A stretch of DNA of 64,000 nucleotides from an uncultured Thermococci archaeon (GTDB lineage Archaea; CAYQAE01; CAYVLA01). The notes below the pieces were generated by a model that worked only from the letters and a program-made list of their open reading frames with translations, was not told the origin of the DNA and searched no databases. The stretch lies in assembly GCA_964549615.1 (NCBI GenBank), contig CAZJVP010000099.1, forward strand, positions 32,001 through 96,000, written 5' to 3'. Positions 399-63,456 of this stretch are shown here, in pieces (position 1 is the first letter of the stretch; every line of letters starts with the position of its first letter). The position numbers and the translations under genes were made by a program.

Positions 399-1613
399 TC
401 AGTATGGCAACCGAGGAAGGAACCTTTCGTTCAAGATCTTTCGCCAATCGAACTTGCTTTCGGCCGATTGCCGCCCCCGCCTTCCCATTCTTCTTCGGAG
501 ATGGGGATCTAGGATTAGCCGACGAAGATAGTCGGAGAGAACGTTGGGGTCGCGGGGCGGAACAAGATAGCCTTCCTTTTCATGTTGCAGGATCTCGGGT
601 ATCCCGCCGATCCGTGAGGCGACCACCGGCACTCCTGAACTCAGGGATTCGGAAACTACCAGTGGGCAAGCATCCATCTGGACACTGGGCACGACCACAA
701 TATCGGAGGACCTGTACTTTTCAGCTTGACTCTTCTGATCAATTGACCACGGCAAGGTTTCTAGGAAGGGTAACCTTACGGGACCCATGCAGTACTCAGA
801 GTCGACCCTCACTTTGAAGAGAATTCCTTGCCTTATCAGCTCTTGGGCAGCGTCGAGAAAGAACTGGAATCCTTTGGCCGGATCACTGGCGCGACCCGGT
901 AGGTACACAATTGGAAGTTCACCGACCTCACCCTTGCTCGTCGGAAAGAAAATATCCGTGTCAACGCCATTGGGAAGAAGGTCGACAGCAACATCCTCTC
1001 CAAGCGTTTTTCGAAACATTGCCTCCAAACCACGGTTAACGACGAAAATTTGGTCTAGGAGTTTCAGCTTTTCCACGAGCATGCGAGGTCGCAGGAACAC
1101 CGGTAGGTCGTACATAAGCCTCCTGATTGTTTGGACTTTCCAGAAATCGGACCATCCAGGAACGCCGCAGGCGAGACACCGCATGCACCTCGCTCCATTC
1201 GAGAAGAAGTCAGTCTCACAGATATGATCGCCAGTCCAGAGGTCGCCCACCCTCCTCGGACAGAAGGGGAAGTATGCCCCCAAGTGATAGATCGCGTAAG
1301 TATGTCTGACCGCGTCGACAAGCCTATACAGGTCGAGAAAGGAAAAAGGCTGGGTCAAAAGCGATATATCAGGCGAAAACCGCTTGACTTCCTTCCGCAC
1401 CAACAGAGAGAACGTGTAGAGATCGAATCGCCTCCTATTCAGTTTCACGAGGCCGAATCCCAGACCGTCGGGATCGCGCACTTCGCCACACGTGACTAGC
1501 CGCACATCATATCCGTGTTGGCGAAGGGCCGTGCCAAACTGATACTTCACAGTATCCGCCCCAGACCTGGGTGGCCAGCTGAAGAACCTGCTTACGATTA
1601 ATACACGCTTCAC
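399..1613 (-). CDS. GT4 family glycosyltransferase with Cys-rich insert
   Basis: N-terminal RVLIVSRFF, LPNGVD, PGRASDPAKG, VVPSVQMDACPLVVSESLSSGVPVVASRIGGIPE. Confidence 0.9.
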   Translation of the reverse strand: MKRVLIVSRFFSWPPRSGADTVKYQFGTALRQHGYDVRLVTCGEVRDPDGLGFGLVKLNRRRFDLYTFSLLVRKEVKRFSPDISLLTQPFSFLDLYRLVDAVRHTYAIYHLGAYFPFCPRRVGDLWTGDHICETDFFSNGARCMRCLACGVPGWSDFWKVQTIRRLMYDLPVFLRPRMLVEKLKLLDQIFVVNRGLEAMFRKTLGEDVAVDLLPNGVDTDIFFPTSKGEVGELPIVYLPGRASDPAKGFQFFLDAAQELIRQGILFKVRVDSEYCMGPVRLPFLETLPWSIDQKSQAEKYRSSDIVVVPSVQMDACPLVVSESLSSGVPVVASRIGGIPEILQHEKEGYLVPPRDPNVLSDYLRRLILDPHLRRRMGRRGRQSAESKFDWRKILNERFLPRLPY

Positions 1614-1785
1614 TATTCACCAACCTCCACTGGTATGACTGGCACGCACCGACACGGACCCAGCAAAACGTATAGTTCAACGGTCGTCGTTTTGACAAGA
1701 ATTAAATGCGATCCCCGTCCAAACAGGTCGGGAAGCAAGATAGCTAGAACAGACTAGCCGCTTTGTCCCGCTGCAGCGGTTTCCG

Positions 1786-2658
1786 GTGAAATCAGGTATG
1801 ACAACCAAGTTTCATGTTCTCCTGACAGTGGACGTTGAGCCGGGGTACAGGTCAGCGGATGGCACGATGAACTGGGATTACGGATCCACAGTCCTGCAGA
1901 AAGGGAATGCAGGCGCACCCGGCTTTTTCTCAGGGGTTCCGACACTTCTTGAGCTAGCCGAGGAGATGTGTACGCACGGAGCGACTCACATAACCTTCTT
2001 CCTCATGCCCCTAATCTCTGTGATCAGAAATAGCGAGTCTCTGACGTCCCAATTAGTGTCCGCCAGCAGGGCGGGCCACGAAATGGGAGTCCATATCCAC
2101 CCAGACGATCCTGCGCTAGCCAAGGCCGAGACATACAACCCTGTATTCTCTTCAAACCCTTTCTTGGCTCAGCTTGCACTTATGCGCCGTGCGAAGAGCC
2201 TAATTTCGAACATCGTAGGTAAGACCACGTCAATTAGAATCGGGCGACTTGCGGCCGACGGAAGAACCCTGATGGCTATGGCTCTTTCCGGATTTCGTTT
2301 CGACAGCAGTCTTGCATCTCGCGGAGAAAAGCCTGTGAATTGGCACCGAGCGGTATTGAGAGTCCCAATATCCGTAGATCCGACAGGAAGATGGGCCCAT
2401 CCCGCATACGGCTTCGACTTCTTGAGGACGCTCTTTCTTGAAAGATACACCGTATGGGATCGTCGGCGGCAGGGATTCCTAGTGATATTCCTTCACAGCT
2501 CGAACATCGTAGACCAACGAGGTCGTACAAACAGTGACTTTGAGAACCTGAAGAGGTTCGTCGGCTATGTTTCCGACGAGTTTTGTTCAAAGGGCGACAC
2601 GCAATTCAGTTCAGTGCGTGAGTTCTCGCTCGCCTGGAGGAGTTCGGATCGCCCGTAA
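1786..2658 (+). CDS. Polysaccharide deacetylase family (NodB-like fold) protein
   Basis: LTVDVE, TFF, GHEMGVHIHP, SIRIGR, FDSS, IFLHS motifs. Confidence 0.75.
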   Translation: MKSGMTTKFHVLLTVDVEPGYRSADGTMNWDYGSTVLQKGNAGAPGFFSGVPTLLELAEEMCTHGATHITFFLMPLISVIRNSESLTSQLVSASRAGHEMGVHIHPDDPALAKAETYNPVFSSNPFLAQLALMRRAKSLISNIVGKTTSIRIGRLAADGRTLMAMALSGFRFDSSLASRGEKPVNWHRAVLRVPISVDPTGRWAHPAYGFDFLRTLFLERYTVWDRRRQGFLVIFLHSSNIVDQRGRTNSDFENLKRFVGYVSDEFCSKGDTQFSSVREFSLAWRSSDRP

Positions 2659-2953: not shown

Positions 2954-5900
2954 TCAACCATAGTCGACTATCCACCTCACCTTGCCACCCGGGTGCTTCA
3001 CTTCGACGGTATGTATTCCGAAAGTGATGTCGGTTTGCACGTAGTAATAATCGGTAAAATACTTCTCGACGCTTCCGGCAAAGTCTGCACACTCTGCCGC
3101 TGTGACGCGGACGGGAATGTACACCCGGCCGTCTATGCTAATTTCTGTGAATACTCCCCAAAGCCTCACGTTAAGACCCGTTCCTGTCTCCCACGGATAC
3201 CGGCCCCATAGGCCTTGAGCAGCCTTCGGGATAGGTTCTACGAGAAGGTTAGGCGCGGGCAGCAGACGCGTCCCGCTAGCCCTAACGAAGTCGACCATCC
3301 ATCGCGATCCATACACGGTACCGTCCTCGTGGATGTAGCCGACCCTTCCATTCCTCACCGCATCCATGAAGCCAGCCCAGTCGCCCGTTCTAGCTACAAA
3401 CAAACCCACGACATGCTGAGCGTGGTACATCCCCCCCTCGAAGGTATGGTGATTGTCCGCCTCGTCCAGCGGAACCAACCTGCCAGCGTATTTCTCCAAC
3501 CAAGGTTGGTCACGGACTATGTCCGCTACGAACTTCAGGTAGGTTCCCCCCGACACGAATCCGTTATACCCGCCGATCTCCACAGCTGCATCAAGTACAT
3601 CCACTGCCCTGTAGTAGTCCTGTGTAGAGGAGTAAGCTGAGACCCCGTTCGCCAAGAAGCCGCGGTTGTAAATAACGAGATCGTCAAAGGAGTTCCCCAT
3701 GGTGTTCGAGCCTCTGTAGGGCGACCAAGGAGAACCGCCGCTCGGGCTAGTGACGTAGGAATGGCTGTGGTCGTGAGGGTCGTAGCCGTTGAACTGGAGG
3801 TTGAAAGTATAGATTTCGTCCCCCTTGGCCACAAACACGGGAAGCCCGTAGGCTTCAGCGAACGCGTTCATAGGATCTATTAGGCTGTCGCCTCCCTTCT
3901 TCCCAGAGATTATCGATATGCCCTGTTCGTAGGCCCCCATCACCGCGAGACCACCAAGATCTCTGGATCCCGGATAGTTTCCGCCGAAGGCCTGGGTTTT
4001 GAATTTGAACACCTTGTAGGTCTGATCCTCGAACCAGGGCGGGGGCTCCGGGGGGTCCCTACATACGGGTGGATTGGTTGGCATTCCCATCTTCCTCAAG
4101 ATCTCCAACGCGTAGTAGGTGGGCTCGAGCCTTGAGTCCCAACCCGGCCTGTCGCCAAAACCCCCGTCTGAGTTCTGGCACATCATGACCCAATCGTAAG
4201 TCCTCAAGGGGATCGTTCTCCCGGCCGTGTAGAGGAGATCTACGGCCCAGTAGGTCTCCCTCATATCACTTTCCCGTCCCCTCTCATAGCCCCAGCCTCC
4301 GTCAGCGTTCTGTACCGAGAGCAAGTAGTCGATGGCAGACTGCGGGATGCCTCTCCCGGCCCAGTATAGGATCATTGCGGCGTGGTGTGTCCTCCATACA
4401 CACGACCTCTGTGGCTTAAAGTCAGACAAAGTGGAAAGCCGAGTCCCAAGCGGATTTGATTCCCAACCACCATCAGCGTTCTGATTGCGTTGGAGAGCAT
4501 CAGCGACCTCTGCCAGCGTGGGGCTTGCAGTCGAAGTCTCGCCCAATAGCCTCAACGCGTGGAACTTGTGATAGACTACATCCAGCCTCCAGGAAGAGTC
4601 TTTCTCCACCAGCTCCTTGACGTCGGGGAGCGAAGATCCTAGGAGGGAAAGCGCCGTGAGACTTATATCCAGTCTCCACGGACCCATATTCGCCGCCTCG
4701 TTGCCGGGAGAATCAACCGCCGCGAGCGACGGTAAAGCCCCGGAGATCTTTTCGGCCAGGCCCGAGGGAATGGTTGCCCCGCAGAGCGCTGCCGCGGAGG
4801 CTCCAAACGCATCATGGTAGAAACTGGACCAAGATTGTCCGTAGGGCCCATACCCGTCCGCTTTCTGGCAGGACTCGACGTAATCACTCGGCGTCTTGAA
4901 ACCCGAGGCATCCACGTAGGCTACGAGGGCGGTCACATCGTCAGTCTTGGAGAGCGATCCGAGATCTGGCGTCTGCAGCGCACAGACCATGGCGCTCCCA
5001 TTCACAATTATGTTGCCCGTCGAAACGCCGCTCGGTAGGTAGAGCTTGAGGAACTGTGACACTCCCGGGTAGACTATGAGTGAAATCTCATTCTTCTTCG
5101 GATCGTAGGACAGGATTTCGGGTGGCTTAGCCTTCTTCAGAACCTCCCCGGTGTATCCATCTTCCCGTTCGGGAAAACCAAGCATCTCGAAGGGGACGCC
5201 AAGCTTGACGATCTTCATGTCCTCTGCCGGAACCGTAAGAGAAAGCTGGTTGTTGGACCTCGTAAGGTAGACCCATGGAGAGTTCGGGGACGATGGATCA
5301 AAGGCGACGAGAGTGTCGCATCGGTACGAATCGAATAGACCGCTGCCTATACTTATCCGCAGGGTCTGGGCTGAGAACTCAAAGTTGCTCACCGCCAGTT
5401 GCCACATGCTTCCAGTCTCCTTGCTCAGGGAATAGTAGAGATTCGATGTCTGCGGGAGGAACCAAGCCGGCTTGATGCCAAGCGTCCGACGTCCAAAAGG
5501 ACGGCTGCCACCAGTTGGCAGCTCGGCGTACTCCAGATTGGACAGGTAAGGCACGTAGTTCCATTTGGACGCGATCTTCCGGGCGAAAGCCTTCTCTTCC
5601 TGGTCGAAGGAGTAGGGGGAACCTGCGTCGGCAGGGCCATCCCATCCTCCGTGGACCCAGTTGGTCACATAGTGGGGGTTTAGAAGATACGCGTAGAGAA
5701 CCTGCTCTGCAAATCCAAGATCCCAATCCGTCGCGGTCCCGTGCCGGTCCATCGTCCTGTGCAGGTAGTAATCCGTTGCTAGGTCGCTTGCACAGGCCGA
5801 GACGCCGGCTGAGAATAAGGGTTGGTAGAGGCTCGAGTCGAAGTGATCAGTGAAGTACCAGGTTGCCTGGCCGTTGGCATCGCAATGCTGGAAGTGATTG

Positions 5901-8098
5901 ACGCTCGCGGCGAGGCGCCCATCGGCAGGGATGACATGGCTCGACCACCTATAGCCAAGGTGCGGCTGTCCTCCATACCAGGTGTCGGCCCTGAACGACC
6001 TTAGCGTACCGAGTATGTCGCTTACCATGTGAGCTTCGAACTCCGTTGAGTCGAGGACTCCGTCCCCGTTGTCATCCCATTCAGAGGCCAAGGGAACCAT
6101 GCCCTCGACGCCGTGGTAGCTTGCATACTCTTGATCCAGCACCAAGGCGCGCCACGTCGGGTCGGTCGCGATCAGGCGACCAAGCTTCTTGGCCACTCTT
6201 TCCCACTGCTCGCTGGAATGCGGCGCGGGCACAGGCGGCGAGTCGGCGCGCCAGGTCCTGTGGTAAAAGAACCATGACATGGCGTAGAAGGTGCCCGCAG
6301 GGTCCCTCTGTTCTACCGCCCTCCTCCATTGTTCGTACCATCCGCTCATCACCATCGCGCCGCCGAACTCGGGTGGCCAAAGCCCGGTGCGGTCCTCGAA
6401 GGGATAGAAGTACCGGGGCGGGTCGGTCGAGGACTGGCCCCACGTGTTGATCGGGATCACGAATGATCCCTCAACCTCCTGCAGTCTGTCTAGAACGACT
6501 TCTGGCGACCATCCTTGCTCCCCCCAGGACTCGAGTAGCCCGAACCCGTAGTGATCGTTCCAGATATCGGGGAGGGCCACGAAGGACTTGCTGGTGGAGG
6601 CCTGGCCCTCCGAGGTTGTGACCCAGTAGGTGACCTTCTCCGAAGGGGCTACCCTGATCCTAGCCTCCCACATATTCGGCCAGTTAGGAGAGTTCACTGG
6701 AGTCATCGGGACGCTGCCGCTAGCGAAGACGAAGTCCAGCCCGTTGTAGCGCCGCTCGTAGTGAAGCGTTACACCGCTTGTGGACGTCACTATGGCGTAT
6801 ATGCTCGCCCACCCGTCCGACGGGAAACTCGGGTATATGTCGTAGAGATCGTCGAAGTGATCATTCTCCCACACCGAGAGATCCCCGACGTAGAGACCCG
6901 CTATGCCCTGCTCCTTGACAACCGCGGTCTTGGTCGCCGTTGATCGATGGCCGGCGATGTCCACGGCCTCAACGGTGAGGACCACCTGCTGCCCGGGGTT
7001 GGCTTGGATCTGGAACTCGCATTGGTAGTCTCCGTTTGCCGTCCAAGCTATCTGTCTGGAGATCGCAGCTCCGCTGTCCACTCGGAGAGAGAATATCAAG
7101 GAAGAGACGGCATAGTCGTCGGAGATGCTGGCTTTCGCGGTAACCGAACCTGTTGGGCCGTAGAGGTCGCTGGCACCCGTGGATTGAACCGAGAGGCTTC
7201 CGATGCTCGGCGGCAACTCATCCGACCGGGAGCTGGGACCCAGCACGACGCTTAGGCTGCCCGAAAAGGTGGACGCGTCTCTCGTTCCGGGCGGGCAGGA
7301 AAGAAAACTGTACAGGCCGACCGCCCTCTCGGGCCCCGCGGGAACAAGCAGGTAGGGTAGAGGCGTCGCTCCAATCATAAGGGGCGGCAGGCCCTTCTCC
7401 GGAGAGGCATATAGATCGGAGTCATCATCGATGATGATGCTGGAGGCGGGTATTCCTTGCCCTGAACCAGACATCAGTCCCGCTGAGGACAAGTAGAGGC
7501 GGGCATCATCATTACACGCTACAAACAGCCCAAGGGGGCTGGGCGACCCCGACGCGGTCTGGCCCGCCGGGACGGAGAAGGACAGGCTAGGTGGATCACG
7601 GATCAGGAAATCAAAATCGACTTCCGCCGACAGGCTGGCTACGATGGACCAGGGCGCTATCTGGCACCTGATGCCCCATATGCCGGCCCTCGCCAGACGC
7701 GCAAGCTTAAATGCGAAAACCCATTCATGGATCGTCTGACTCCGGCTGGAGAAAGAGCTCCGAGCAGGGATCAAAGCCATCTGGCCCTGTGGCTCGACGA
7801 ACCCCGTTGCGCTCGCCCAAGACATTGACAGGCTGTGCGGAAGGTTCGAATGCTGCGTGGGTCCCTGCAGCGTGATCTGCACCGAGCCTATCTCCGAGAG
7901 GGCAGCGTTCTCGAGATGGACGAAGAGCCTGTACTCGCCGCCCGGAGCCATTTTCTGGACCGCCTTTCCCTGGGAATCCATCAAAGTCAGCGTGGCCCAA
8001 GCGCTCTGGCTGGACGCCTCCCGAGCCAGAGGCAGCAAGCTGCTCAATACGAGAAGCAAGACCGCGGCTACGCTGAATAGCGATCGTCTGAGCGACAG
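2954..8098 (-). CDS. Large secreted multidomain protein: N-terminal beta-rich domains, EF-hand loop, prenyltransferase/squalene-oxidase (QW) repeats, C-terminal PHP-like metallohydrolase
   Basis: 1701-aa ORF from TTG 8059, extendable to CTG 8098. Contains a signal peptide, DDNGDGVLDSTE, QNADGGW twice, CQNSDGGF, HDHSH, DEADNHH and FMDAVRNGR. Confidence 0.85.
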   Translation of the reverse strand: MSLRRSLFSVAAVLLLVLSSLLPLAREASSQSAWATLTLMDSQGKAVQKMAPGGEYRLFVHLENAALSEIGSVQITLQGPTQHSNLPHSLSMSWASATGFVEPQGQMALIPARSSFSSRSQTIHEWVFAFKLARLARAGIWGIRCQIAPWSIVASLSAEVDFDFLIRDPPSLSFSVPAGQTASGSPSPLGLFVACNDDARLYLSSAGLMSGSGQGIPASSIIIDDDSDLYASPEKGLPPLMIGATPLPYLLVPAGPERAVGLYSFLSCPPGTRDASTFSGSLSVVLGPSSRSDELPPSIGSLSVQSTGASDLYGPTGSVTAKASISDDYAVSSLIFSLRVDSGAAISRQIAWTANGDYQCEFQIQANPGQQVVLTVEAVDIAGHRSTATKTAVVKEQGIAGLYVGDLSVWENDHFDDLYDIYPSFPSDGWASIYAIVTSTSGVTLHYERRYNGLDFVFASGSVPMTPVNSPNWPNMWEARIRVAPSEKVTYWVTTSEGQASTSKSFVALPDIWNDHYGFGLLESWGEQGWSPEVVLDRLQEVEGSFVIPINTWGQSSTDPPRYFYPFEDRTGLWPPEFGGAMVMSGWYEQWRRAVEQRDPAGTFYAMSWFFYHRTWRADSPPVPAPHSSEQWERVAKKLGRLIATDPTWRALVLDQEYASYHGVEGMVPLASEWDDNGDGVLDSTEFEAHMVSDILGTLRSFRADTWYGGQPHLGYRWSSHVIPADGRLAASVNHFQHCDANGQATWYFTDHFDSSLYQPLFSAGVSACASDLATDYYLHRTMDRHGTATDWDLGFAEQVLYAYLLNPHYVTNWVHGGWDGPADAGSPYSFDQEEKAFARKIASKWNYVPYLSNLEYAELPTGGSRPFGRRTLGIKPAWFLPQTSNLYYSLSKETGSMWQLAVSNFEFSAQTLRISIGSGLFDSYRCDTLVAFDPSSPNSPWVYLTRSNNQLSLTVPAEDMKIVKLGVPFEMLGFPEREDGYTGEVLKKAKPPEILSYDPKKNEISLIVYPGVSQFLKLYLPSGVSTGNIIVNGSAMVCALQTPDLGSLSKTDDVTALVAYVDASGFKTPSDYVESCQKADGYGPYGQSWSSFYHDAFGASAAALCGATIPSGLAEKISGALPSLAAVDSPGNEAANMGPWRLDISLTALSLLGSSLPDVKELVEKDSSWRLDVVYHKFHALRLLGETSTASPTLAEVADALQRNQNADGGWESNPLGTRLSTLSDFKPQRSCVWRTHHAAMILYWAGRGIPQSAIDYLLSVQNADGGWGYERGRESDMRETYWAVDLLYTAGRTIPLRTYDWVMMCQNSDGGFGDRPGWDSRLEPTYYALEILRKMGMPTNPPVCRDPPEPPPWFEDQTYKVFKFKTQAFGGNYPGSRDLGGLAVMGAYEQGISIISGKKGGDSLIDPMNAFAEAYGLPVFVAKGDEIYTFNLQFNGYDPHDHSHSYVTSPSGGSPWSPYRGSNTMGNSFDDLVIYNRGFLANGVSAYSSTQDYYRAVDVLDAAVEIGGYNGFVSGGTYLKFVADIVRDQPWLEKYAGRLVPLDEADNHHTFEGGMYHAQHVVGLFVARTGDWAGFMDAVRNGRVGYIHEDGTVYGSRWMVDFVRASGTRLLPAPNLLVEPIPKAAQGLWGRYPWETGTGLNVRLWGVFTEISIDGRVYIPVRVTAAECADFAGSVEKYFTDYYYVQTDITFGIHTVEVKHPGGKVRWIVDYG

Positions 8099-37541: not shown

Positions 37542-37543
37542 GT

Positions 37544-55588: not shown

Positions 55589-55613
55589 GACAGCAAAAAG
55601 TAGCCTCAGAAGG

Positions 55614-55621
55614 CTTAAAAG
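55614..55621 (-). promoter_or_regulatory. Archaeal TATA-like box
   Basis: CTTTTAAG on the minus strand, identical to the box at 35484-35491. Confidence 0.55.
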
Positions 55622-55711
55622 CCAAGTGGCCGGGCCGAATACTCGGGTTTCAACGTTTCCCATCGGTTCTGTCGGCGGCCGGGGCAAAAGAGAGGTGTTT
55701 CTGACAGCTTG

Positions 55712-56281
55712 CTAGCGCGCCTGCCGCAGCGCCTCAATTCGCCTGACCGTTCCTTCCACCACGCGTCCCACCAACCGAACCCTCATGCACGAGATGATCA
55801 TTCTTCTTACCAGAAGAAGAAATCGGTCTACTAAACCTTCCTGACGAAAGGCCTTGGCGTAGGGCACACATCCCTCCCTCCAACCTCTGAAGCTTAGCCT
55901 GCGTATTCGCACACCCAACGTGCGAACATACCACTGAGCCATCTCCTCATCCTTTGCCTCCCCCACGTAGCCCGCCCCGCCCTGGCGCCACATCATCCTT
56001 TCGGCCTCACGGCACAGCATCTCGCCCAAGCCCCTTCTCCTGTACTCAGGGCGGACGAATAGAGTGTGGACGTGATAGTACCTGCCCGATGTCCTCTCGA
56101 AGCACCTCATCCCGATCACCTTGCCCTCCCACCGGGCAACAAGCGTTGTGCTCCGCTGAATCCACCCTTCCATCCCGGGTAGGTACATGTCGTTGCATTT
56201 GAGCATCTCGATTGCCTCGGCTAGGGAATCGCTTGATGCGACCTCGATTGTTGGAGAGAAATCTGACAACTCTACACCCAA
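55712..56281 (-). CDS. GNAT N-acetyltransferase
   Basis: LFVRPEYRRRGLG (motif A); CAAACCTTTTAC about 20 nt upstream. Confidence 0.85.
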   Translation of the reverse strand: MGVELSDFSPTIEVASSDSLAEAIEMLKCNDMYLPGMEGWIQRSTTLVARWEGKVIGMRCFERTSGRYYHVHTLFVRPEYRRRGLGEMLCREAERMMWRQGGAGYVGEAKDEEMAQWYVRTLGVRIRRLSFRGWREGCVPYAKAFRQEGLVDRFLLLVRRMIISCMRVRLVGRVVEGTVRRIEALRQAR

Positions 56282-56943
56282 TTCCGGTGCGGAAATGCCG
56301 AGTAAAAGGTTTGTGGCGGATGATCGGATCCGAGCATGTCTTGATCCGCTATTTTGGAATCAGGGACGGATGCCGCATAGCGGGGCGGGCGAAAGTGAAG
56401 ATCTTGCGCACTTGGCAGGATTATCCGAAGCCACCGTGACCGGCGGAAAAGGCCGCCTGTGGAAACAGTTTGCTCCCTGCGTGTGAAGAACCACCGCCAC
56501 CAACCAAGACACCACGAGGATGCCATGAAGGGAACAACTCCGGCCGCGGCTCACCGGCTGCGAGCCACTTGCAAGTATTGCGACAAATGACAAAGATGGA
56601 CCGCCCAGCCCGGTTCCACCCCCGGAGAGGTCGAACCCTCCTTTCACCGACTTCAGACCGCCGGCAGCTTATGGCCCGGGCGTGCACTGGCAGGTGTGCA
56701 AAGAGGGCTTTTTGTCATTTTGGGCCTCATGCTTGCAGTCCCCATGGGTGCGGCGTGTCCGGTCCCAGGACCGATGGCAACGGCGTGATTCGCCTGCTTC
56801 ACATCGGCAAGGCATGGTTCTACCCGGGCCACCCAGCCCCCGTCCTGAGCCAGGACCCGCGCATCAACTACTACCCCGTCCCGGCCTTGCAAGGATCAGG
56901 CGCGCTCAAAGCCAACTCGACGTGGACCCGATGACCGGCTAGG

Positions 56944-57369
56944 CTATCCCGGAAGCGCCTCAAGCCTATTGACATCCCTCACAGCATCGAAGCCGCCATC
57001 AAATGAGAATATGCCGGGCAGCTTCCTATCGCGAACGATGACCACGCTTATGGCATCCGCAAAGCTCAGCTGCCTGTACGTCCTGAAGATGTGATGAGCC
57101 GCGTTGAAGATGTCGTCGTCCACGAAGAGCGTGTCCACATGGGCGGAGTTGAGCATGGCCTCCCCGACCTCGGCCGAGCGGTCAGGCCCAATCTTCCTCC
57201 TGAGATAGGTAACGACCTCCCCGAATATGTGGTTGGTTATGAAAACCCTGCCGAGTGCCCCCTCCGACACGGCCCCGACCCCGACTATGGGCTTCGGCCT
57301 CTCATGGTGTCGATCCCTCGGATTGAATGCGCCGATCCAGACCCCTGAGTCCACAAGGTACAAGCTCAC
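56944..57369 (-). CDS. vapC: PIN-domain toxin (VapC family)
   Basis: LVDSGVW, D.HH, GEVVTYL, LSFADA, SFDGGFD. Coupled to the upstream antitoxin. Confidence 0.9.
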   Translation of the reverse strand: MSLYLVDSGVWIGAFNPRDRHHERPKPIVGVGAVSEGALGRVFITNHIFGEVVTYLRRKIGPDRSAEVGEAMLNSAHVDTLFVDDDIFNAAHHIFRTYRQLSFADAISVVIVRDRKLPGIFSFDGGFDAVRDVNRLEALPG

Positions 57370-57608
57370 CCGCTCCCATGGACGACCTCGTCCAGCTCCG
57401 CTGTGGCGTCGGCCTCCCTTTCCGTCGGCAGCGCGCCTATGAGCGCCTTCAGCGGATCCTCCCCGCTGGCCTTCCGCACCCTGATGTAGACCTCGTCACC
57501 AAGGATGGTCCAAACCACCTCATCGCCAGGCCCCACCCCGAACCTTTTCCGGAGCGATGCCGGCACGACCGTCTGGAAACCCTTTGACACCCTTGTCGTG
57601 GCAACCAC
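57366..57608 (-). CDS. vapB: AbrB/MazE/SpoVT-type antitoxin
   Basis: TRVSKGFQTVVPASLRKRFGVGPGDEVVW; ATGA overlap with the PIN gene. Confidence 0.9.
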   Translation of the reverse strand: MVATTRVSKGFQTVVPASLRKRFGVGPGDEVVWTILGDEVYIRVRKASGEDPLKALIGALPTEREADATAELDEVVHGSG

Positions 57609-58778
57609 GGAGGCCGTCTCCTTGGGAAACGAGCAGTCTCAAAGCAGTTCAATCTTTCTCATGCCCAGCCGTGCGCTGCAGATTCATGCATGATGCGCCC
57701 TGCTTCCCCAAGGTCGCGCCAAGCTTCCAGGCATTCCCTTGTTCTGGTCGTCGACCAGCCTGGCCTGGATATGGACCCTCCTTGACTGCTGTGTCACCCG
57801 GATCGAGGCGGGTCCGTAGGCCTCCGGCATGCCGAAGAAGCGACCGTACTGCTCAAGGCTGAAGGAGACCCCTCCACCCTCACTGTGAACTTGCGGTCGT
57901 TGGATGTGACCAGGACCTGGGAGGCAGATCATCCATCACACTTGCCTCAACAACAAGCCGGACACCAAGGCGATCGCGCAGGGCAACCTGAGCTCCGGTT
58001 CCTCCAGAGCTTGGAACGATCCATCGAGGGGCTGAGCAAGGAGCCGCCGCTTCTCAGAACCTGATCCTTGGCCAAGACCGGCAGGCCTGCCAGGTGCCTT
58101 GCGAATCAGTTCCCCGCACGTCAGGCCAGGCATCGCGGTTTGTTGGATTTGCCATGGTCGAGCGCGGCCCGCACCTTGGCTTCCTGATGTGTCCTCACCC
58201 TGCCGGTTAAATATACTGAGCCCGCTTCAGCCAAGCCATATGGTAGGCCTCGCTCAGAGCCGTCCCGAACTCGCGGTACCCGACACGCGGATGGCCCAAC
58301 AACTAGGACGGCCCCCTGCCCGGCTGGTCGGGAGGCAGGGACCATGCGACCATCATGCCGGACGTATTCCCGGCGGCGGTCTGCACCACCATTGCCGTCG
58401 TGGCCTCCGACCCTAGTAAGACGGGCGGGCAAGTCTTCCCATCGAGGAGGCCCGGACAGGAAAATTGCGCCGGGTGAGTTGCCAGTTGCCACGTGCAGGC
58501 TGAAGATACCCCACCGTCGGGTTCTTCCAGCCTCCAAGAATACTCTTATCCCTGCCAGAGAAAACGGTGATCGAAACACAGGCACGAACAGAGGAAATAA
58601 GCCACCTAGGACCTGCTTATCGGGCAACCCTTCCCCCGCGCGAGGGCGCCGCCTGAGGCTCTTCAGCTGCCCATCCCAAGGCATCGATACCTCCCATCCC
58701 AACATCTGACCATCCTTTATCACCCAGCCTCCGATGGTATGGGATGTCCTCCGTCGGGGCCTTCGGGGCTGACCTGAG

Positions 58779-59861
58779 ATGAGGGATGAAAGCTTTGGTC
58801 CGGCTGGCATGATTGAGGAATGGTCGAACCAGCCCAAGGCGAATCACAGCGCGGATGACGGGCCGTCCATCAGCGTGATCATCCCTTGCAAACCATCTGA
58901 CGGGCTTCCGCCAGTAATCGAGTCTGCCTCGAAGCTGGACTACCCGAGCGACCTTTTTGAGATCCTCCTGATCAAAGGAACCAACCCCTCCCTGCAGCGC
59001 AACTTGGGGGCAAGTCTCGCCAAGGGCGACATACTGGCCTTCACTGACGATAACTGCCAGCTTCCCCCCGACTGGCTGAGACTTGCAGCCAAGCACTTCC
59101 GCGACGCTAGAGTCTCCATAGTCGGCGGTCCGAACCTGACTCCTCCGTCGGATCCCCGTCTCTCGAGGATCTTCGGCCTGGCTTGCGCGTCCAAACTGGG
59201 CACCGGCCCGATGCACAGGCGATACCGACGCACTCGGCTGCTCCCGCAGGCGGATGAAAGTGCCTTGGCACTGAGCAACCTCTTCATCCGTCGGAAGCTC
59301 TTCGACAGCGGACTGAGTTTCAGCCCTCTTCTCTTTCCAAACGAGGAGAACCAATTCATGAATGGAGCCTCGCGACAGGGGCACCGCATGGTCTACGATC
59401 CTGACATCGTGGTCTACCATCCCAGGAAGCGAAGCTGGCGGGCGTTTTCACGCCAGTTCGCTCGCTATGGCGCCGGGAGAGCGAGGCAGACCCGCATGGA
59501 CCTCGGAAGCCTGAGGCCCTTCCATCTCTTGCCCGGGGCGCTGGTCCTCGCATCGATGTTCCTACTCGTCGGGGTGTTGCTGTTTCGCCGCTTACTGCCT
59601 TGGGTTCTGCTCCTTGCGGCTGCATACATCGTCCCAATCGTCGCCGAGTCGGTTCGGATCAGTCTCCGTGAGGGCGATCCTAAAGCGGCTTGGCTGCTGA
59701 TTCCGTCATTCCTCCTCATCCACTATTCCTACGGCTTTGGATTCGTCATGGGCTTGATCTGCCCGCTCGGCAAGATCCGCGGGGCCGCCCCGACCCGGGA
59801 CGACGTCTCTCGTCTGGAGCCATCAGGCTACACATGGCCTGCTGGACAGAGGATCTCGTAG
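58779..59861 (+). CDS. GT2 glycosyltransferase with C-terminal TM helices (ExoA-like)
   Basis: ISVIIP, QRNLG, AFTDDNC, VGGP, NEE, QFARYGAGR, IHYSYGFGF. Confidence 0.9.
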   Translation: MRDESFGPAGMIEEWSNQPKANHSADDGPSISVIIPCKPSDGLPPVIESASKLDYPSDLFEILLIKGTNPSLQRNLGASLAKGDILAFTDDNCQLPPDWLRLAAKHFRDARVSIVGGPNLTPPSDPRLSRIFGLACASKLGTGPMHRRYRRTRLLPQADESALALSNLFIRRKLFDSGLSFSPLLFPNEENQFMNGASRQGHRMVYDPDIVVYHPRKRSWRAFSRQFARYGAGRARQTRMDLGSLRPFHLLPGALVLASMFLLVGVLLFRRLLPWVLLLAAAYIVPIVAESVRISLREGDPKAAWLLIPSFLLIHYSYGFGFVMGLICPLGKIRGAAPTRDDVSRLEPSGYTWPAGQRIS

Positions 59862-60812
59862 GCAGGTGACCCTGGCGCACAGGATTCCAAGGAGGCACAT
59901 CGCGGCTGATCCTAGGGATACGTCCTCTGCCACCTCAAAGATGCTGACATAGTCCACCTGTATCCACTCGTCCTGAACAAGGTCAACGTAGCCCCTGACT
60001 AAGCGGGTCCCGTCCCAGTAGATGCGGTAGTTGTCTATCCAGATTACCAGTCCCATCTCGGTGTCTGGCGGGGAATCCGTGCCGGCAACCACTCGACCGT
60101 CCACGGTGAACTGCGCCGAGCCGTCCCGCCAGACGATCCCGTACGTGTGCCAGTCACGCATATCCACTCCCTCGACGGGCTGCGTCAGCGTGATGTTGTC
60201 GTTCCTCACCGACATGACGTTAAAGCCGGGGAAAGGGTACTCCGAATGGCGCGATATGCTGATGAACCAGAGGACATTTGAAGGATTGGTCTCGCCCATT
60301 AGGTGGCCGAAGTTTCCGTTCCAGAAGCCCCATCCTCTCGTTCCGCCTCCAGCCTCGCCCGTGAGCGTATTGTCGTCGCTGCACCTGAGCCTTACTTCGA
60401 AACCTTTGTGAAGCCAGTTCAAACCTCGACCCCCCATGATGTCGTTTATCTCAGCGTCGGAGTACTCCTCGCTCGAAGATGCCGCGCTGACGTTGAGGAA
60501 GAGGTATCCGTTGCAAACCACAATTGTGCCCGTGCCTGGGTGATAGCCCCAGTACCAGTGATTATCCATGTCATCGAAGTCGTCGAAGAATATCAACCCT
60601 GAGGCGGATGTGGCGGGTCTCAGGGCCGGGCCGAGGCTGCACGCAAGTGCGGCACCCGCGATGAACAAGCCGAGAAGAACCATCGCCCTGGGTCTACCGG
60701 TGTAGCCCGATCCCGTGGGGCCCGCCTTAGGAGGCCTAGCCCCCGAGTGCGGAGAAGGGGCCCAGGTTCTCATCCAAGAACCAGCCTCTTCATCAGGTTG
60801 CGGTTTGACCAA
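59823..60812 (-). CDS. Secreted ConA-like/GH16-like beta-sandwich protein with C-terminal TM tail
   Basis: Signal-like segment, FFDDFD, GTRGWGFWN, WHTYGIVW...FTVDG, IWIDN, IQVDYV; tail EVAEDVSLGSAAMCLLGILCAR. Confidence 0.75.
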   Translation of the reverse strand: MVKPQPDEEAGSWMRTWAPSPHSGARPPKAGPTGSGYTGRPRAMVLLGLFIAGAALACSLGPALRPATSASGLIFFDDFDDMDNHWYWGYHPGTGTIVVCNGYLFLNVSAASSSEEYSDAEINDIMGGRGLNWLHKGFEVRLRCSDDNTLTGEAGGGTRGWGFWNGNFGHLMGETNPSNVLWFISISRHSEYPFPGFNVMSVRNDNITLTQPVEGVDMRDWHTYGIVWRDGSAQFTVDGRVVAGTDSPPDTEMGLVIWIDNYRIYWDGTRLVRGYVDLVQDEWIQVDYVSIFEVAEDVSLGSAAMCLLGILCARVTCLRDPLSSRPCVA

Positions 60813-60824: not shown

Positions 60825-61802
60825 TCACACCTTGTTGCCTCGGGCGCTCCGAAGATCCAGGGACCTTCGGGCCCGCCGCACAATCTCGCTTGCTCTTACG
60901 ACGATGGTCCAGAAGGCGCATAGCAGTCCCGTGCCTGCGGTGGGCCGACCCAATGCCCTGAGGAGGGCCATTCTGCACCTCAGGCTCAGCCACCTGACGT
61001 ACAGCTTCTCGCTTCCGGCATTCCCCGGCGGGTCTGCGTATATCCTGGTGACGGGGACCTCGCCAACCGTTAACCCGATCCTGGCCGCTTGTCCCCACAC
61101 TTGGAAGGGCATGGCATAACCCGTCTCAGTGATCTTCAGCTTCCTAAGCGCGTCCGTCCTGTAGGCCTTGAAGCCCGTGGCGGCGTCCGTGACGCGGTAT
61201 CCAGTCATTTTCGCCACGAAACGGGCCATCTCCAAGTTTGCCTTGAGCCTGTGCGGCGCCGGCTTCCCCACGTGCGGAGAAAGATCATGATACCGGCTTC
61301 CCGACACGATATCGTACGAGACCAGTTTCTCCACCAACCTGCGCAGATCTCTCGGGTCATGTTGGCCGTCGGCATCCATGGTCACCACGCCTTTGTACGG
61401 TCCTGCAAGCGCCGCGGCGAAGCCTGTCAGAATAGCAGAACCATACCCCAGGTTGGCGTGGTGGCGAACGCCCATGAGCCTAGGCATTTCGCTGCGGAAG
61501 CGGTCGATCACCGCCCAGGTCCCGTCCGTTGAACCATCGTCCACGACAAGCACGTCTCCCCTCCACTCCTGGGCAACGAGGTCCAGGACCCTCGGGAGGC
61601 TTTCCTCTTCATTGTGGGCCGGGATGACAAGCAATGCATCTTTGTCTGCGATTGCCAGGATTTCCTGCGTGCAGGTCCCGCCCTCGGAGGACGGGCGAGC
61701 TCGCATCTCGCACAAGCGCCTACGACCAACATCTTGCTTCCGCGTGAGTTGAAGAAACTTCCTGTCGAATGATATCCATCCGGGGATCACCCACACGTTC
61801 AC
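60825..61802 (-). CDS. GT2 polyprenol-phosphate glycosyltransferase (DPM1-like)
   Basis: IPAHNEE, VDDGSTDGT, GYGSAI, MDADGQH, GSRY, TDAATGFKAY, EVPV. Start is uncertain. Confidence 0.9.
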   Translation of the reverse strand: MNVWVIPGWISFDRKFLQLTRKQDVGRRRLCEMRARPSSEGGTCTQEILAIADKDALLVIPAHNEEESLPRVLDLVAQEWRGDVLVVDDGSTDGTWAVIDRFRSEMPRLMGVRHHANLGYGSAILTGFAAALAGPYKGVVTMDADGQHDPRDLRRLVEKLVSYDIVSGSRYHDLSPHVGKPAPHRLKANLEMARFVAKMTGYRVTDAATGFKAYRTDALRKLKITETGYAMPFQVWGQAARIGLTVGEVPVTRIYADPPGNAGSEKLYVRWLSLRCRMALLRALGRPTAGTGLLCAFWTIVVRASEIVRRARRSLDLRSARGNKV

Positions 61803-61815
61803 CGCCCGGCACGCC

Positions 61816-63456
61816 TCAAGCCGAGGGGCGGTCCACGTTTCTGTAGTGGTAGAGCTGTATGCCGACGTAGCTCCTCTTGTCCTGCAGCGAGAAGGCCTCG
61901 TCCAGATACTTCTTGACCTGGCCTTGGGGGTCAGTGAACTCCTGATGGGAAAGGACCAACCACACCCCGTTCACCGAGGGTTCGTTGCGCACGATCTGGT
62001 CCACCTGTTCTGCAGTGTAGGCCAACTTCAAGTAGCTTGAGTTTCCGCGATGCCGGTGGTAGTACCAGAACGGAACTACAACGTAGGGCGCGTTGAAGAC
62101 GACGACCTCGTCCGCGGCTAGGTGTTGAGAGACGTACCCTTCCAGCTCCCTCCACTGCTCCTTCTGCTCCTCGGCGTAGTACTTGGCCAGACTCGCTGAG
62201 CTGGAGATCAACAGGGAACACACCACGAGGATACCTGCTAGTCTGCCGAGGGCCAGAGCGGTGTTGCGCGTCCCGCGCGCGACCAGGATGTAGAAAGCTG
62301 GGGACGCAGCAATGGTGTAGTGTTTCGCATAGATGGGAAAGAGGAGTAGGGAGAAGGTGAAGGGAATGACGATGGACGATCCGAGCCATAGGAGGAGAAG
62401 GACAACCACGTCTAGGCGTGCCCCGAGGGAGAGCGCCCAGCGGAAGCCGGTCAAGGAGTCGATGGGGCATCGAGGCCGGAAACTGCCGCTCAGCTTGGCA
62501 AGCTCGAAGAGACCCAAGACCATGAGGAATGAGTACGCCATTAGCCTGATCTCGTTCTCTCCGCCGTAGTAGGCTAGGGTCTTGGGAAGATCAACGAAGG
62601 TTGGCTGTCTGAGCCAAGAGATCCCCAATATCAATCCGGGCTCCGCCCGCATGCCCCTGAGTACGTCCAGCTGGCGAAGCACGTTCAGAACCCAAGGAAG
62701 GAAGGCGATGAAGGGCAACCCGAACATCACCACCCAGGGAAGGCGCGCAACCGCGTTCGGCTTTGCAAGCGCGGTCATGGAAAGCCCCTCATCGGCCGGC
62801 GGGAGCCCCCCGTTTGCCGGGGTTCCGATGCGAGCTTGGCGCGCGCGGAGGCGGGCTCTGAGGTAGAGCGAGAAAATGGCCTCTGAGGCGACGATGAAAG
62901 ACCCGTAGACATGCGTGTAGAGAAGAAAGACGTTGGTCAGGGAAGCTGCAACCATGTCTCTTGCCCTTCCACTTTCCAGGTATCTGATGAAGAAGTAGTA
63001 GGACGCGAGACCAAGGAAGACCATCATCGAGTAGCCCCGGGCCTCCTGGGAATAGGAGATGTGAAGGCTTGATGCAGCCATCACCAGGGCCGAGATGAGC
63101 CCGACGCCGTCTCCGAAGAGGCGTCTACCCACCAGATAGATCATGAGCAGGGATAGAACCCCAAATGCTGCTGAGGGAATTCTCACCGCCAGCTCGCTGT
63201 CCCCGCAGATCGAGATCCAGCAACGCAGCATAACGTAGTGAAGGGGAGGGTTCGTCTCGCGCCCCATTCGGGACCAGAACTCCGCCGAGTTGCTCTCAGA
63301 CACCAAGACGCTCGTCGCCTCGTCCAGCCAAAGGCTCTCAGAGGAGATCTGCACCAACCTGAGGACTGCGCCTCCCGCGAGGATCGCCAGGAGGCAGAAA
63401 AGCACCCAACCTAGATGGACGTTTTGATCGGATGCCATTCTTCCCATCCGATGCAA
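61816..63456 (-). CDS. GT39/ArnT-like (GT-C) membrane glycosyltransferase (paralog of 41343..42821)
   Basis: WLDE, NPPLHY, RIPS, YSQEARGY, many TM helices. Confidence 0.9.
   Translation of the reverse strand: MHRMGRMASDQNVHLGWVLFCLLAILAGGAVLRLVQISSESLWLDEATSVLVSESNSAEFWSRMGRETNPPLHYVMLRCWISICGDSELAVRIPSAAFGVLSLLMIYLVGRRLFGDGVGLISALVMAASSLHISYSQEARGYSMMVFLGLASYYFFIRYLESGRARDMVAASLTNVFLLYTHVYGSFIVASEAIFSLYLRARLRARQARIGTPANGGLPPADEGLSMTALAKPNAVARLPWVVMFGLPFIAFLPWVLNVLRQLDVLRGMRAEPGLILGISWLRQPTFVDLPKTLAYYGGENEIRLMAYSFLMVLGLFELAKLSGSFRPRCPIDSLTGFRWALSLGARLDVVVLLLLWLGSSIVIPFTFSLLLFPIYAKHYTIAASPAFYILVARGTRNTALALGRLAGILVVCSLLISSSASLAKYYAEEQKEQWRELEGYVSQHLAADEVVVFNAPYVVVPFWYYHRHRGNSSYLKLAYTAEQVDQIVRNEPSVNGVWLVLSHQEFTDPQGQVKKYLDEAFSLQDKRSYVGIQLYHYRNVDRPSA

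Follow-up and report, generated by a model that had tools for sequence, protein, structure and literature searches.

In both Porphyromonas gingivalis and Tannerella forsythia, VimE, a CE4 deacetylase, is proposed to remove the C-2 acetyl group of a sugar and VimA then to add Ser or Gly, and exchanging the vimA orthologue between the species switches Ser to Gly (PMC7468200). According to the same account, VimA matches the TIGR03019 model (pep-cterm_femAB), WbpS makes a uronamide, and the linking-sugar idea is proposed to extend to exosortase systems (Veith et al. 2020, PMC7468200). In Caulobacter, the locus of a polysaccharide adhesin, the holdfast, pairs the CE4 deacetylase HfsH with the FemX-like tandem GNAT HfsK, which is proposed to acylate the amines exposed by HfsH (PMC5362036). 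Here we analysed a 64-kb stretch of archaeal DNA (hereafter the window), positions 32001-96000 of the ~152-kb contig C99 (CAZJVP010000099.1) of genome G000, and describe in it a conserved 11-gene core (window 8.4-25.1 kb) in which the gene for a CE4-fold protein directly adjoins that for a FemAB-like transferase. We think it fairly probable that the island around this core builds an N-acyl-edited surface glycan by way of deacetylation and re-acylation, AsnB-like amidation, radical SAM chemistry and lipid-linked sugar steps. Positions are those of the window unless a contig is named.

Like Wbp/Vim (VimE, VimA, WbpS and VimF), the island combines GT4 glycosyltransferases with a CE4 deacetylase, an amide-forming AsnB-like enzyme and a TIGR03019-type transferase, and Wbp/Vim chemistry, as its source presents it, takes the acetyl group off N-2 and puts an amino acid on. 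Its pairing of a CE4 gene with a pep-cterm_femAB-type transferase gene recurs here at 11093-12853, which adjoins 12825-13859. In contrast to the island, the pathway is bacterial and depends, by the same source, on WbpA/B/E/D for a 2,3-diamino uronic acid; C99 carries a UDP-sugar dehydrogenase and a hexapeptide transferase but no DegT-type aminotransferase (0 of the 15 DegT_DnrJ_EryC1 matches of the genome are on C99). Moreover, WbpS is by family a glutamine-type amidotransferase, whereas the AsnB-like proteins of the island lack the Cys, and the core adds two radical SAM proteins, an (alpha/alpha)6 protein and DUF354 proteins. As we read the comparison, the island would resemble Wbp/Vim at the deacetylase/transferase step, without the Wbp diamino-sugar genes. 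The holdfast locus differs in having no radical SAM, AsnB-like or PaaK-like partners; in the published account, the role of HfsK is itself unproven, and its regulation by c-di-GMP via a C-terminal tail is a holdfast feature.

For family assignment, all 135 open reading frames (ORFs) of at least 105 aa in the window were searched against Pfam with an E-value threshold of 0.001 (38 matched), and 52 selected ORFs were searched against NCBIfam. The reference set comprised five species-level genomes in the host phylum, with relatives in the same genus (G001), the same family (G002 and G003) and the same class (G004). We compared the neighbourhoods of all Acetyltransf_6 matches in three same-family genomes with a curated list of 46 window genes; this curated comparison covers 11 loci (L010-L018, L090 and L091), and the comparison tables for wider loci used an ORF set lacking three overlapping genes (13878-15521, 17031-18239 and 44043-45149). 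A metagenome scan with an 8-sequence alignment of the family of the 586-aa CE4-fold protein returned 17 loci. The core region reads as follows:

8445-9971, minus strand: (alpha/alpha)6-barrel protein of 508 aa with a C-terminal membrane helix; hydrolase-, transglycosylase- or epimerase-like
9960-11096, plus strand: GT4 glycosyltransferase (Pfam; 36-52% identical and syntenic in relatives)
11093-12853, minus strand: membrane-anchored 586-aa protein, predicted CE4-fold deacetylase (structure model and VIA-align), the fourth deacetylase of the window
12825-13859, minus strand: FemAB/VimA-like tandem-GNAT transferase (Pfam Acetyltransf_6 1.4e-19, FemAB 4.8e-15)
13878-15521, minus strand: AprD4-like radical SAM protein, possible amino-sugar diol dehydratase (Pfam Radical_SAM)
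15392-17245, minus strand: B12-binding radical SAM protein, possible C-methyltransferase (Pfam Radical_SAM 9e-26; B12-binding 35.8 bits, cut-off 32.1)
17031-18239, 18236-19420 and 19490-20641, plus strand: three GT4-type glycosyltransferases (Pfam; only the first has a counterpart in L090)
20638-21312, plus strand: hexapeptide-repeat (LbH) sugar acyltransferase, WcaF/WbbJ-like (Pfam Hexapep 3e-19; NCBIfam WcaF 76.9 bits)
21224-22708, minus strand: 494-aa membrane protein with two N-terminal helices, a middle domain of ~280 aa and a C-terminal helix (hydropathy)
22833-23933 and 24058-25101, plus strand: two DUF354 proteins (Pfam PF04007 6.8e-24 and 1.4e-9)

The cluster is carried by the near-identical metagenome loci L089 and L090 and by L091. 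In L090, the cluster comprises 11 genes that run collinear with window 8.4-25.1 kb, 29-64% identical, in the order DUF354, DUF354, 494-aa membrane protein, hexapeptide transferase, GT4, radical SAM, radical SAM, FemAB-like, 586-aa protein, GT4 and 508-aa protein. In locus L013, from the genus of the host, five genes are collinear at 52-65% identity with those of window 9.96-17.2 kb: the GT4 gene (9960), the genes for the 586-aa and FemAB-like proteins, and the radical SAM pair. L017, from a third genus, has the four tailoring genes (586-aa, FemAB-like and two radical SAM) at 45-63%. The core set is rearranged in G002, where it directly adjoins nucleotide-sugar genes and two DUF354 genes. The 586-aa and FemAB-like genes are immediate neighbours in L013, L017, L014 and L090, that is, in three genera plus a metagenome contig. 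The families of the island are thus linked in relatives rather than scattered, the 11-gene core and two smaller blocks being collinear; module order differs between relatives.

The AlphaFold2 (AF2) model of the 586-aa protein (pLDDT 81.3, pTM 0.84) has an N-terminal helical hairpin, a beta-sandwich, a CE4-fold domain at about residues 198-527 and a C-terminal beta-sandwich. We ran VIA-align against 48,161 solved chains, and the CE4 domain gave Z 19.2 to 3rxz (rmsd 2.9, 230 aligned), 18.1 to 1z7a and 17.9 to 3qbu, with lower matches of the protein to PelA (14.7), ArnD (14.2) and Agd3 (12.9). Foldseek with the whole model returned just low-TM multi-domain matches (TM 0.12-0.25), and the protein has no PF01522 match at E <= 1. 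Residues R211, D213, H308, H312 (H-x3-H), D444 and H473 are invariant in 30 homologues; D213, H308, H312, D444 and H473 are candidates for the CE4 metal-binding and catalytic residues. The family is rare, with 8 close cluster representatives and 53 representatives at E <= 0.001 among 1.84 billion, and another 14 metagenome loci show its more distant members surrounded by GT4 and SDR genes. PelA, PgaB/IcaB-type proteins and Agd3 share the arrangement of a CE4-fold domain flanked by beta-sandwiches; the 586-aa protein differs from them in that its closest structures are the small putative deacetylases named above, in its N-terminal membrane hairpin and in the missing PF01522 match. In exopolysaccharide (EPS) systems, a deacetylase is often accompanied by a glycoside hydrolase, and the hydrolase-like (alpha/alpha)6 protein is encoded two genes from the 586-aa gene.

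In its AF2 model (pLDDT 62.6), the 508-aa protein is clearly predicted to be an (alpha/alpha)6 barrel, with a VIA-align Z of 26.1 to the GH76 mannanase 6shm and many (alpha/alpha)6 families at Z 20-26; it is 53-62% identical in L014, L090 and L091. The FemAB-like protein 12825-13859 scores above the Pfam cut-offs for PF13480 (71.1 bits, cut-off 22) and PF02388 (55.7 bits, cut-off 24), and its counterparts beside the CE4-fold gene in L013, L017, L014 and L090 are 32-55% identical. Searched by sequence against solved structures, neither it nor the FemAB-like protein 53242-54390 found anything at E <= 0.01, and distant homologues in Bathyarchaeia and bacteria lie among glycosyltransferase, WecB, PIG-L and hexapeptide genes in the loci listed (16 of 68). 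The initial annotation had listed two B12 radical SAM proteins. Both are radical SAM proteins, and only 15392-17245 passes the Pfam B12-binding cut-off, 13878-15521 reaching 20.6 bits against 32.1. The best solved relative of 13878-15521 is AprD4 (6fd2, 117.5 bits), with NF033070 at 132.5 bits against a cut-off of 500 and hence not at equivalog level, and the protein is 49-62% identical in L013, L017 and L090. The solved structures matched by 15392-17245 are AprD4 (66.6 bits) and TsrM (46.7 bits), and it is 50-65% identical in relatives. Further along the core, the hexapeptide transferase is 64% identical in L090, the 494-aa membrane protein has a weak choice-of-anchor R match in NCBIfam and is 29% identical and syntenic in L090, and the DUF354 pair is kept in L014 and L090; DUF354 found no solved relative by sequence, with chance-level rows only.

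From these genes and their neighbours, we propose that the island would build polyprenol-linked oligo- or polysaccharides from HexNAc and uronic acids. Precursors would be supplied by a WecA/AglH-type initiator, a UDP-sugar dehydrogenase, kinases and nucleotidyltransferases upstream of the window together with WecB inside it, and the chain would be assembled by 12 GT4/GT2 enzymes. CE4 and PIG-L deacetylases would free the 2-amino groups of amino sugars, which FemAB/VimA-like tandem GNATs would re-substitute, probably with amino acids from aminoacyl-tRNA, while ordinary GNATs and the hexapeptide transferase would add acyl groups activated by PaaK-like ligases. The glutaminase-less AsnB-like enzymes may adenylate uronic-acid carboxylates and couple them to an amine other than glutamine-derived ammonia, and the AprD4-like and B12-type radical SAM proteins may deoxygenate and/or C-methylate a sugar. 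Two DPM1/ArnC/PpgS-like GT2 and GT-C pairs, one with its own CE4 enzyme, would add single (amino)sugars at the outer face from polyprenyl-phosphate donors. The most likely product, on this analysis, is a heavily N-acyl-edited exopolysaccharide or surface-layer-associated heteroglycan.

Best supported is the central step of deacetylation and re-acylation, for which the CE4-fold and FemAB-like genes, still adjacent in relatives, and the two bacterial precedents speak. Deacetylation followed by re-acylation, as suggested by the initial annotation, is accordingly plausible: the two genes are direct neighbours and the pair is kept in four related records. Taken as a whole, the earlier glycan-editing interpretation held for the island itself, its archaeal host and the linkage of its genes, whereas its cross-linking part did not; a methylated polymer remains uncertain, one of the two radical SAM proteins being nearest to AprD4 and failing the B12-binding cut-off.

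Archaeal surface glycans are chemically very diverse, and the genes behind most of their modifications are unknown. The island probably represents a concrete, conserved gene set for N-acyl editing in an archaeal lineage with five species-level reference genomes, consisting of a rare membrane-anchored CE4 protein, a VimA/FemX-like transferase and AprD4-like and B12-type radical SAM proteins. It extends across the domain boundary the chemistry of two bacterial systems so far worked out only in bacteria, and it points to AsnB-like enzymes predicted to be unable to use glutamine. A surface-polysaccharide locus with N-acyl editing is already known in kind; new here are the 11-gene core, the rare CE4 family, the radical SAM pair and the glutaminase-less AsnB-like proteins.

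Bacterial PEP-CTERM/XrtA EPS loci (also stp1-3) resemble the island in holding FemAB-like, AsnB-like, CE4, acyl-CoA ligase and GT4 genes together, a likeness that the initial annotation had noted. It stands at the level of shared superfamilies, whereas every curated cut-off was missed 5-15-fold: TIGR03019 at 54.3 bits against 260.35 (protein 12825-13859), TIGR03108 at 154.2 against 816.9 (the AsnB-like protein 47738-49669), TIGR03006 at 51.5 against 276.2 and TIGR03098 at 40.2 against 592.35. No exosortase (PF09721) is encoded on the 152 kb of C99, the sole matches in the genome being on other contigs (C88:53688-54371 and C51:56558-57319). We rejected the island as a PEP-CTERM/XrtA locus on account of these scores, the missing exosortase linkage and the archaeal host. 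On C88, the exosortase/archaeosortase-family gene adjoins a GT4 gene (C88:52719-53177), near a UDP-sugar dehydrogenase homologue; on C51, two GT4 genes are nearby and a gene of a surface-protein family (136 matching ORFs in the genome) is ~3 kb away.

Archaeal N-glycans offer related chemistry within the domain: those of Methanococcus and Methanoculleus carry a threonine amide on mannuronic acid and acetamidino, methyl and glyceric acid groups (PMC11407970). There, the amino acid sits on the C-6 carboxyl, and as far as that source goes we found no FemAB-like or CE4 route described (PMC11407970). Unlike archaeal agl clusters, the island has no AglB in or beside it: no oligosaccharyltransferase gene is on C99, and the STT3 matches of the genome are on C43 (two), C61 and C21 (weak). 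The earlier statement that no such archaeal system has been described holds for the genes, for which nothing was found in the open-access literature searched, and not for the chemistry, since N-glycans with threonine amides and the like have been described (PMC11407970). Likewise, the open-access literature that we searched gave no report tying FemAB-like genes to archaeal glycans.

The 64 kb of the window form the middle of a cell-surface glycan island of ~112 kb: with 73 further ORFs of the contig searched with Pfam, glycan genes span C99 from ~5.5 to 117.7 kb. The island is a mosaic of modules, not a single operon. Its clustering is real and far beyond chance: the window makes up 2.0% of the assembly and holds 6 of the 25 Glycos_transf_1 and 6 of the 16 Glycos_transf_2 matches of the genome, or 12 of 41 in all, with 19 of the 41 on C99. 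The assembly (3.21 Mb, 104 contigs, 59.9% G+C) is rated 99.5% complete. Its rRNA fragments score best with the archaeal small- and large-subunit (SSU and LSU) models of Rfam, which beat their clan rivals and establish, in agreement with the initial annotation, that the genome is archaeal and not bacterial. C99 also encodes an archaeal-type prepilin peptidase, which counts toward an archaeal contig, and we rejected bacterial contamination of C99 because three related archaeal genomes match its flanks and modules at 40-77% identity. The MCR alpha subunit (MCR_alpha) was not found in the 99.5%-complete assembly; we rejected a methanogen on this ground, and the host is an uncultured, non-methanogenic archaeon of a very small lineage.

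The gene inventory of the initial annotation stood up well. All 14 glycosyltransferases were recovered with Pfam (6 GT4-type, 6 GT2 and 2 GT-C/PMT_2), as were the two DUF354 proteins, WecB, one SDR, the seven GNAT/FemAB-type genes, the AsnB-like ligase and the hexapeptide acyltransferase, and the three adenylating ligases proved to be PaaK/F390-synthetase-like (Pfam and NCBIfam). Two of the four deacetylases have Pfam support (one PIG-L, one CE4) and the other two (1786-2658 and 11093-12853) belong at fold level only. That there are just two nucleotide-sugar enzymes is true within the window and reflects its edges, as more such genes lie 16-26 kb upstream on C99; the skew toward tailoring enzymes is in part the same edge effect. 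The flanks of the window on C99 (Pfam) and the remaining window genes are:

C99, upstream, 16-26 kb away: two GHMP kinases, two sugar-phosphate nucleotidyltransferases, an SDR epimerase/dehydratase and a UDP-sugar dehydrogenase
C99, upstream: also four GT4, one GT2, a WecA/AglH-type Glycos_transf_4 initiator and an ABC ATPase with a DrrA-type C-terminus
C99, downstream: a UbiA prenyltransferase, GT4s, a PEP-utiliser-domain protein, another radical SAM protein and two AsnB-like proteins
C99, downstream: further, a GNAT, a third GT-C and a methyltransferase
399-1613, minus strand: GT4-type glycosyltransferase (Pfam Glyco_trans_1_4 2e-20)
1786-2658, plus strand: candidate divergent CE4-like polysaccharide deacetylase, the third of the window (ESM Atlas)
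2954-8059, minus strand: secreted 1701-aa protein with a prenyltransferase-type alpha-alpha toroid domain (Pfam Prenyltrans 3e-16, residues 1151-1325)
25388-26290, plus strand: 300-aa protein with an N-terminal hydrophobic segment (hydropathy; no Pfam family)
26520-27668, plus strand: GT4 glycosyltransferase (Pfam Glycos_transf_1 5e-41)
27769-28770, plus strand: SDR nucleotide-sugar epimerase/dehydratase, nearest UDP-4-keto-pentose/UDP-xylose synthase (Pfam Epimerase 1.9e-36; NF008872 95 bits, below the 294 cut-off)
28748-29452, plus strand: PIG-L/BshB-type GlcNAc de-N-acetylase (Pfam PIG-L 1.4e-17; BshB1 68.9 bits, below cut-off)
29460-30404 (plus), 30493-31635 (plus) and 31592-32467 (minus): three GT2 glycosyltransferases (Pfam)
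32560-33858, plus strand: PaaK/F390-synthetase-like adenylating ligase (NCBIfam)
33911-34723 and 34693-35460, minus strand: two GNATs (Pfam)
35723-36763 (plus), 36777-37541 (minus) and 38821-39561 (minus): binding protein, permease and ATPase of an SsuA/NMT1-type ABC importer (Pfam, NCBIfam)
37544-38824, minus strand: phenylacetate-CoA-ligase-like gene inside the ABC importer operon (Pfam, NCBIfam)
39895-41205, plus strand: third PaaK-like adenylating ligase (NCBIfam DVU_1553 family, 108 bits; 27% identical to the 32560 gene)
41343-42821, minus strand: GT-C, PMT_2 (Pfam, NCBIfam)
42818-44203, minus strand: WecB (Pfam, NCBIfam)
44043-45149, plus strand: CE4 deacetylase (Pfam, NCBIfam)
45201-46004, plus strand: ArnC/DPM1-like GT2 (best NCBIfam match ArnC)
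45996-47429, minus strand: FAD amine-oxidase/phytoene-desaturase-family protein (Pfam, NCBIfam)
47738-49669, minus strand: AsnB-like amide synthetase (Pfam Asn_synthase PF00733 4.7e-45, 155.2 bits)
49705-50474, plus strand: GNAT pseudogene, frameshifted and 5'-truncated (blastx)
50736-51412, plus strand: pseudogene, frameshifted copy of a 236-aa gene (blastx)
52091-53245, plus strand: FemAB_like PF04339 protein (Pfam 40.6 bits, cut-off 27)
53242-54390 and 54380-55687, minus strand: two Acetyltransf_6 paralogues, 32% identical to each other (PF13480 81.5 and 80.9 bits)
55712-56281, minus strand: small GNAT (Pfam)
56944-57369, minus strand: PIN-domain toxin-like gene, outside the glycan machinery (Pfam PIN 1.3e-10)
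58779-59861, plus strand: GT2 with C-terminal membrane helices (Pfam, hydropathy)
59823-60812, minus strand: 329-aa membrane protein with a weak GH16/concanavalin-like match (E 0.0014), between the preceding GT2 and the PpgS-like GT2 and GT-C pair
60825-61802, minus strand: PpgS/DPM1-like GT2 (Pfam, NCBIfam)
61816-63456, minus strand: GT-C/PMT_2 (Pfam, NCBIfam)

Two smaller blocks of the window are collinear in the sister species G001. Locus L010 holds the WecB, CE4, GT2 and FAD genes of window 42.8-47.4 kb at 44-52% identity (44% for the FAD gene), and locus L011 the GT2 at 30493 (54%), the PaaK-like ligase and the two GNATs of window 30.5-35.5 kb at 52-58%. The ligase and GNATs of 32560-35460 are a candidate module for acyl activation and transfer. 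A homologue of the ABC binding protein (41%) occurs in the glycan locus L010, which hints, by homology, at an imported organic acid as acyl donor. Homologues of the 52091-56281 genes are found in L010 and L011 at 38-58%.

The first of these blocks also recalls lipid-linked sugar transfer. In the Arn and PpgS/Rv3779 systems, a lipid-linked amino sugar is transferred with a GT-C partner. The island places a DPM1-type GT2, a CE4 and a PMT_2-type GT-C within 5 kb (41343-46004), with a second GT2/GT-C pair at 60825-63456. Scores of 87 bits for ArnC (cut-off 529) and 77.1 for PpgS (cut-off 370) are not at equivalog level, and unlike the ArnC/ArnD/ArnT or PpgS systems, the block has WecB and the FAD oxidoreductase as conserved members. 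We know of no lipid A in archaea.

The AsnB-like protein has two paralogues (69% and 40% identical) downstream on C99. None of the three has a Cys after any candidate start, their aligned N-termini reading MARLVGAY, MARLVGVY and MSTLVGGY, so that the nucleophile of glutamine-dependent amidotransferases is lacking, as judged from the translated sequences. Most likely, such enzymes would use an amine other than ammonia from glutamine as the partner of an adenylated carboxylate. The frameshifted GNAT of the initial annotation escaped tblastn when the GNATs of the window were the queries; in blastx against all ORFs of the genome, 49705-50474 matched residues 145-396 of the intact paralogue C99:107407-108597 in two frames, and 50736-51412 likewise matched C99:108939-109646 in two frames. 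The intact AsnB-like gene matches the same stretch (69% to C99:105395-107233), and because this gene and the pseudogene pair do so together, window 47738-51412 is, by these alignments, a decayed segmental duplication of C99:105365-109646.

At 1786-2658, no Pfam match was found even at E <= 1; its likeness to ESM Atlas Polysacc_deac_1 clusters (features 0.94, structure TM 0.86) is a lead, not proof. The 1701-aa toroid protein is a possible surface or acceptor protein, with a single N-X-S/T sequon, unexpectedly few for a surface protein in a glycan island. An 863-aa paralogue with a prenyltransferase/squalene-cyclase-type alpha-alpha toroid lies just upstream of the window (C99:29708-32296).

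Several observations weigh against reading the island as N-acyl-editing machinery. No tailoring enzyme reached a curated equivalog cut-off in NCBIfam, so that the substrates are guesses, and sequence does not distinguish aminoacyl-tRNA from acyl-CoA as donor of the FemAB-like proteins. The 586-aa protein has positive residues on both sides of its hydrophobic segment, which leaves its orientation ambiguous; were the catalytic domain extracellular, a cytoplasmic FemAB-like enzyme would be unable to re-acylate the exposed amines. In the Pfam search of C99, we found no Wzx/Wzy-type flippase or polymerase, oligosaccharyltransferase or sugar aminotransferase. At E <= 1e-20, three same-family genomes gave no match to the AsnB-like gene. 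The phenylacetate-CoA-ligase-like protein 37544-38824 reaches 295 bits to PaaK 4r1l and is a close relative of true phenylacetate-CoA ligases, and together with the ABC importer it may simply serve aromatic-acid metabolism. Finally, the coding strand changes ~20 times across the island, which also contains gene fragments, pseudogenes and a PIN toxin gene; this would suggest several independent pathways rather than one assembly line.

The last points lead to the alternative that the island is a variable storage region of unrelated surface-glycan pathways and passengers, with no systematic deacetylation and re-acylation. Most of the deacetylases would then make free cationic amino sugars, as in poly-N-acetylglucosamine (PNAG), Pel, holdfast and Arn-type systems, the GNATs would perform ordinary acetylation, and an aromatic-acid operon, toxin-antitoxin genes and pseudogenes would be passengers. 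Frequent strand switches, the two pseudogenes of the degenerate segmental duplication, the PIN gene and the gene fragments all fit this reading, as do a G+C of 0.53-0.55 at window 1-4 kb and of 0.56-0.58 at 40-48 kb, lower than the genome's 0.599, the different arrangement of modules in relatives and the absence of the AsnB-like gene from three same-family genomes. It is also favoured by the strong PaaK homology of the 37544 ligase and by the resemblance of the 586-aa protein to PelA and Agd3, which deacetylate exported polymers without re-acylation. However, the CE4-fold and FemAB-like genes stay neighbours in the four related records (three genera and a metagenome contig), the sister-species glycan loci L010 and L011 again contain PaaK-like ligases and the binding protein, and seven GNAT/FemAB-type genes in 64 kb far exceed the need for plain N-acetylation. 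We regard this alternative as unlikely, while giving it real weight beside the N-acyl-editing reading.

More far-reaching is the idea, which we hold to be a long shot, that the 11-gene core makes an N-aminoacylated, deoxygenated and/or C-methylated amino sugar whose amine is the attachment point for archaeosortase-processed surface proteins; if true, the core would be the archaeal counterpart of the bacterial type IX 'linking sugar' and the sugar would be new to Archaea. As a rival account of the core, in which the free alpha-amine of an N-aminoacylated sugar accepts surface-protein C-termini delivered by an archaeosortase, it seems to us very unlikely. Its model is the Wbp/Vim linking sugar, which is amide-bonded to the C-termini of type IX secretion cargo. 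The adjacent VimA-family and CE4 genes speak for it, as do the two exosortase/archaeosortase-family genes of the genome, near a GT4 gene on C88 and ~3 kb from a member of the 136-match family on C51. Those genes are, however, on other contigs and not in or beside the island, the C-terminus of the 136-match family has a long basic tail after its helix and no obvious short PGF/PEP-type motif, and no Wbp-type sugar aminotransferase is on C99. Counting further against it, what ArtA, the known archaeosortase, attaches is a lipid and not a sugar. The extension of the linking-sugar idea to exosortase systems that Veith et al. put forward, as outlined in that source, agrees with it (PMC7468200).

Alternatively, the FemAB-like, radical SAM and CE4 proteins might modify a lipid head group or small metabolite, compare the hopanoid enzymes HpnI/J/K and mycothiol or bacillithiol synthesis. 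The best NCBIfam match of 13878-15521 is HpnJ (148.8 bits), TIGR04072 (lipid biosynthesis B12/radical SAM) scores 92-127 bits, the PIG-L protein best matches the bacillithiol deacetylases BshB1 and BshB2, and MshA and BshA are among the higher-scoring matches of several GT4s. All of these scores are far under the curated cut-offs, though, and the core also encodes the (alpha/alpha)6 glycan-enzyme-like protein, at least three glycosyltransferases and two DUF354 proteins, with distant homologues of the 586-aa protein lying among GT4 and SDR genes in the 14 metagenome loci; a non-glycan target is in our judgement distinctly improbable. The cross-linked envelope of the initial annotation, in its strongest form a new pseudomurein-like sacculus in which FemAB-like and AsnB-like enzymes make peptide or amide bridges between strands, could appeal to the peptidoglycan cross-bridges made by FemAB enzymes (in the account of PMC5362036) and to glutaminase-less AsnB-like enzymes joining a carboxylate to an amine on another chain, but it is extremely improbable, as nothing points to cross-linking, Pfam scans of the window and the rest of C99 gave no Mur-type/ATP-grasp peptide ligase or transpeptidase, the AsnB-like genes are missing from three same-family genomes, which is unlikely for an essential wall, and the island has pseudogenes and a variable layout.

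Between the glycan modules, window 56200-58900 is a junk zone with the PIN gene, a fragment of a surface-protein gene (56707-56886) and a PaaK-like fragment, the latter a two-frame remnant of a PaaK-like N-terminus (57986-58302, minus strand). The 56707-56886 fragment belongs to the very large surface-protein family mentioned above, for which BLAST gave the 136 matching genome ORFs and which has another member at C99:122549-123763; its C-termini share a conserved helix and basic tail, ...KDRALLWxYxxEW...LWTLMVRRRLYREV..TR. Further down the island, there are HEPN/nucleotidyltransferase pairs at C99:103802-104985 and 120916-122273, and together with the G+C dips they are compatible with piecemeal acquisition. 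As for the archaeal-type promoters of the initial annotation, 18 of 47 assumed starts have AT-rich octamers no more than 120 nt upstream, some of them at -22 to -35, as inspected by eye and without a shuffle control. A second, smaller glycan locus (C55:14500-28800) carries the genome's fourth Acetyltransf_6 gene with two GT2 genes, an SDR gene and a DegT-type aminotransferase gene.

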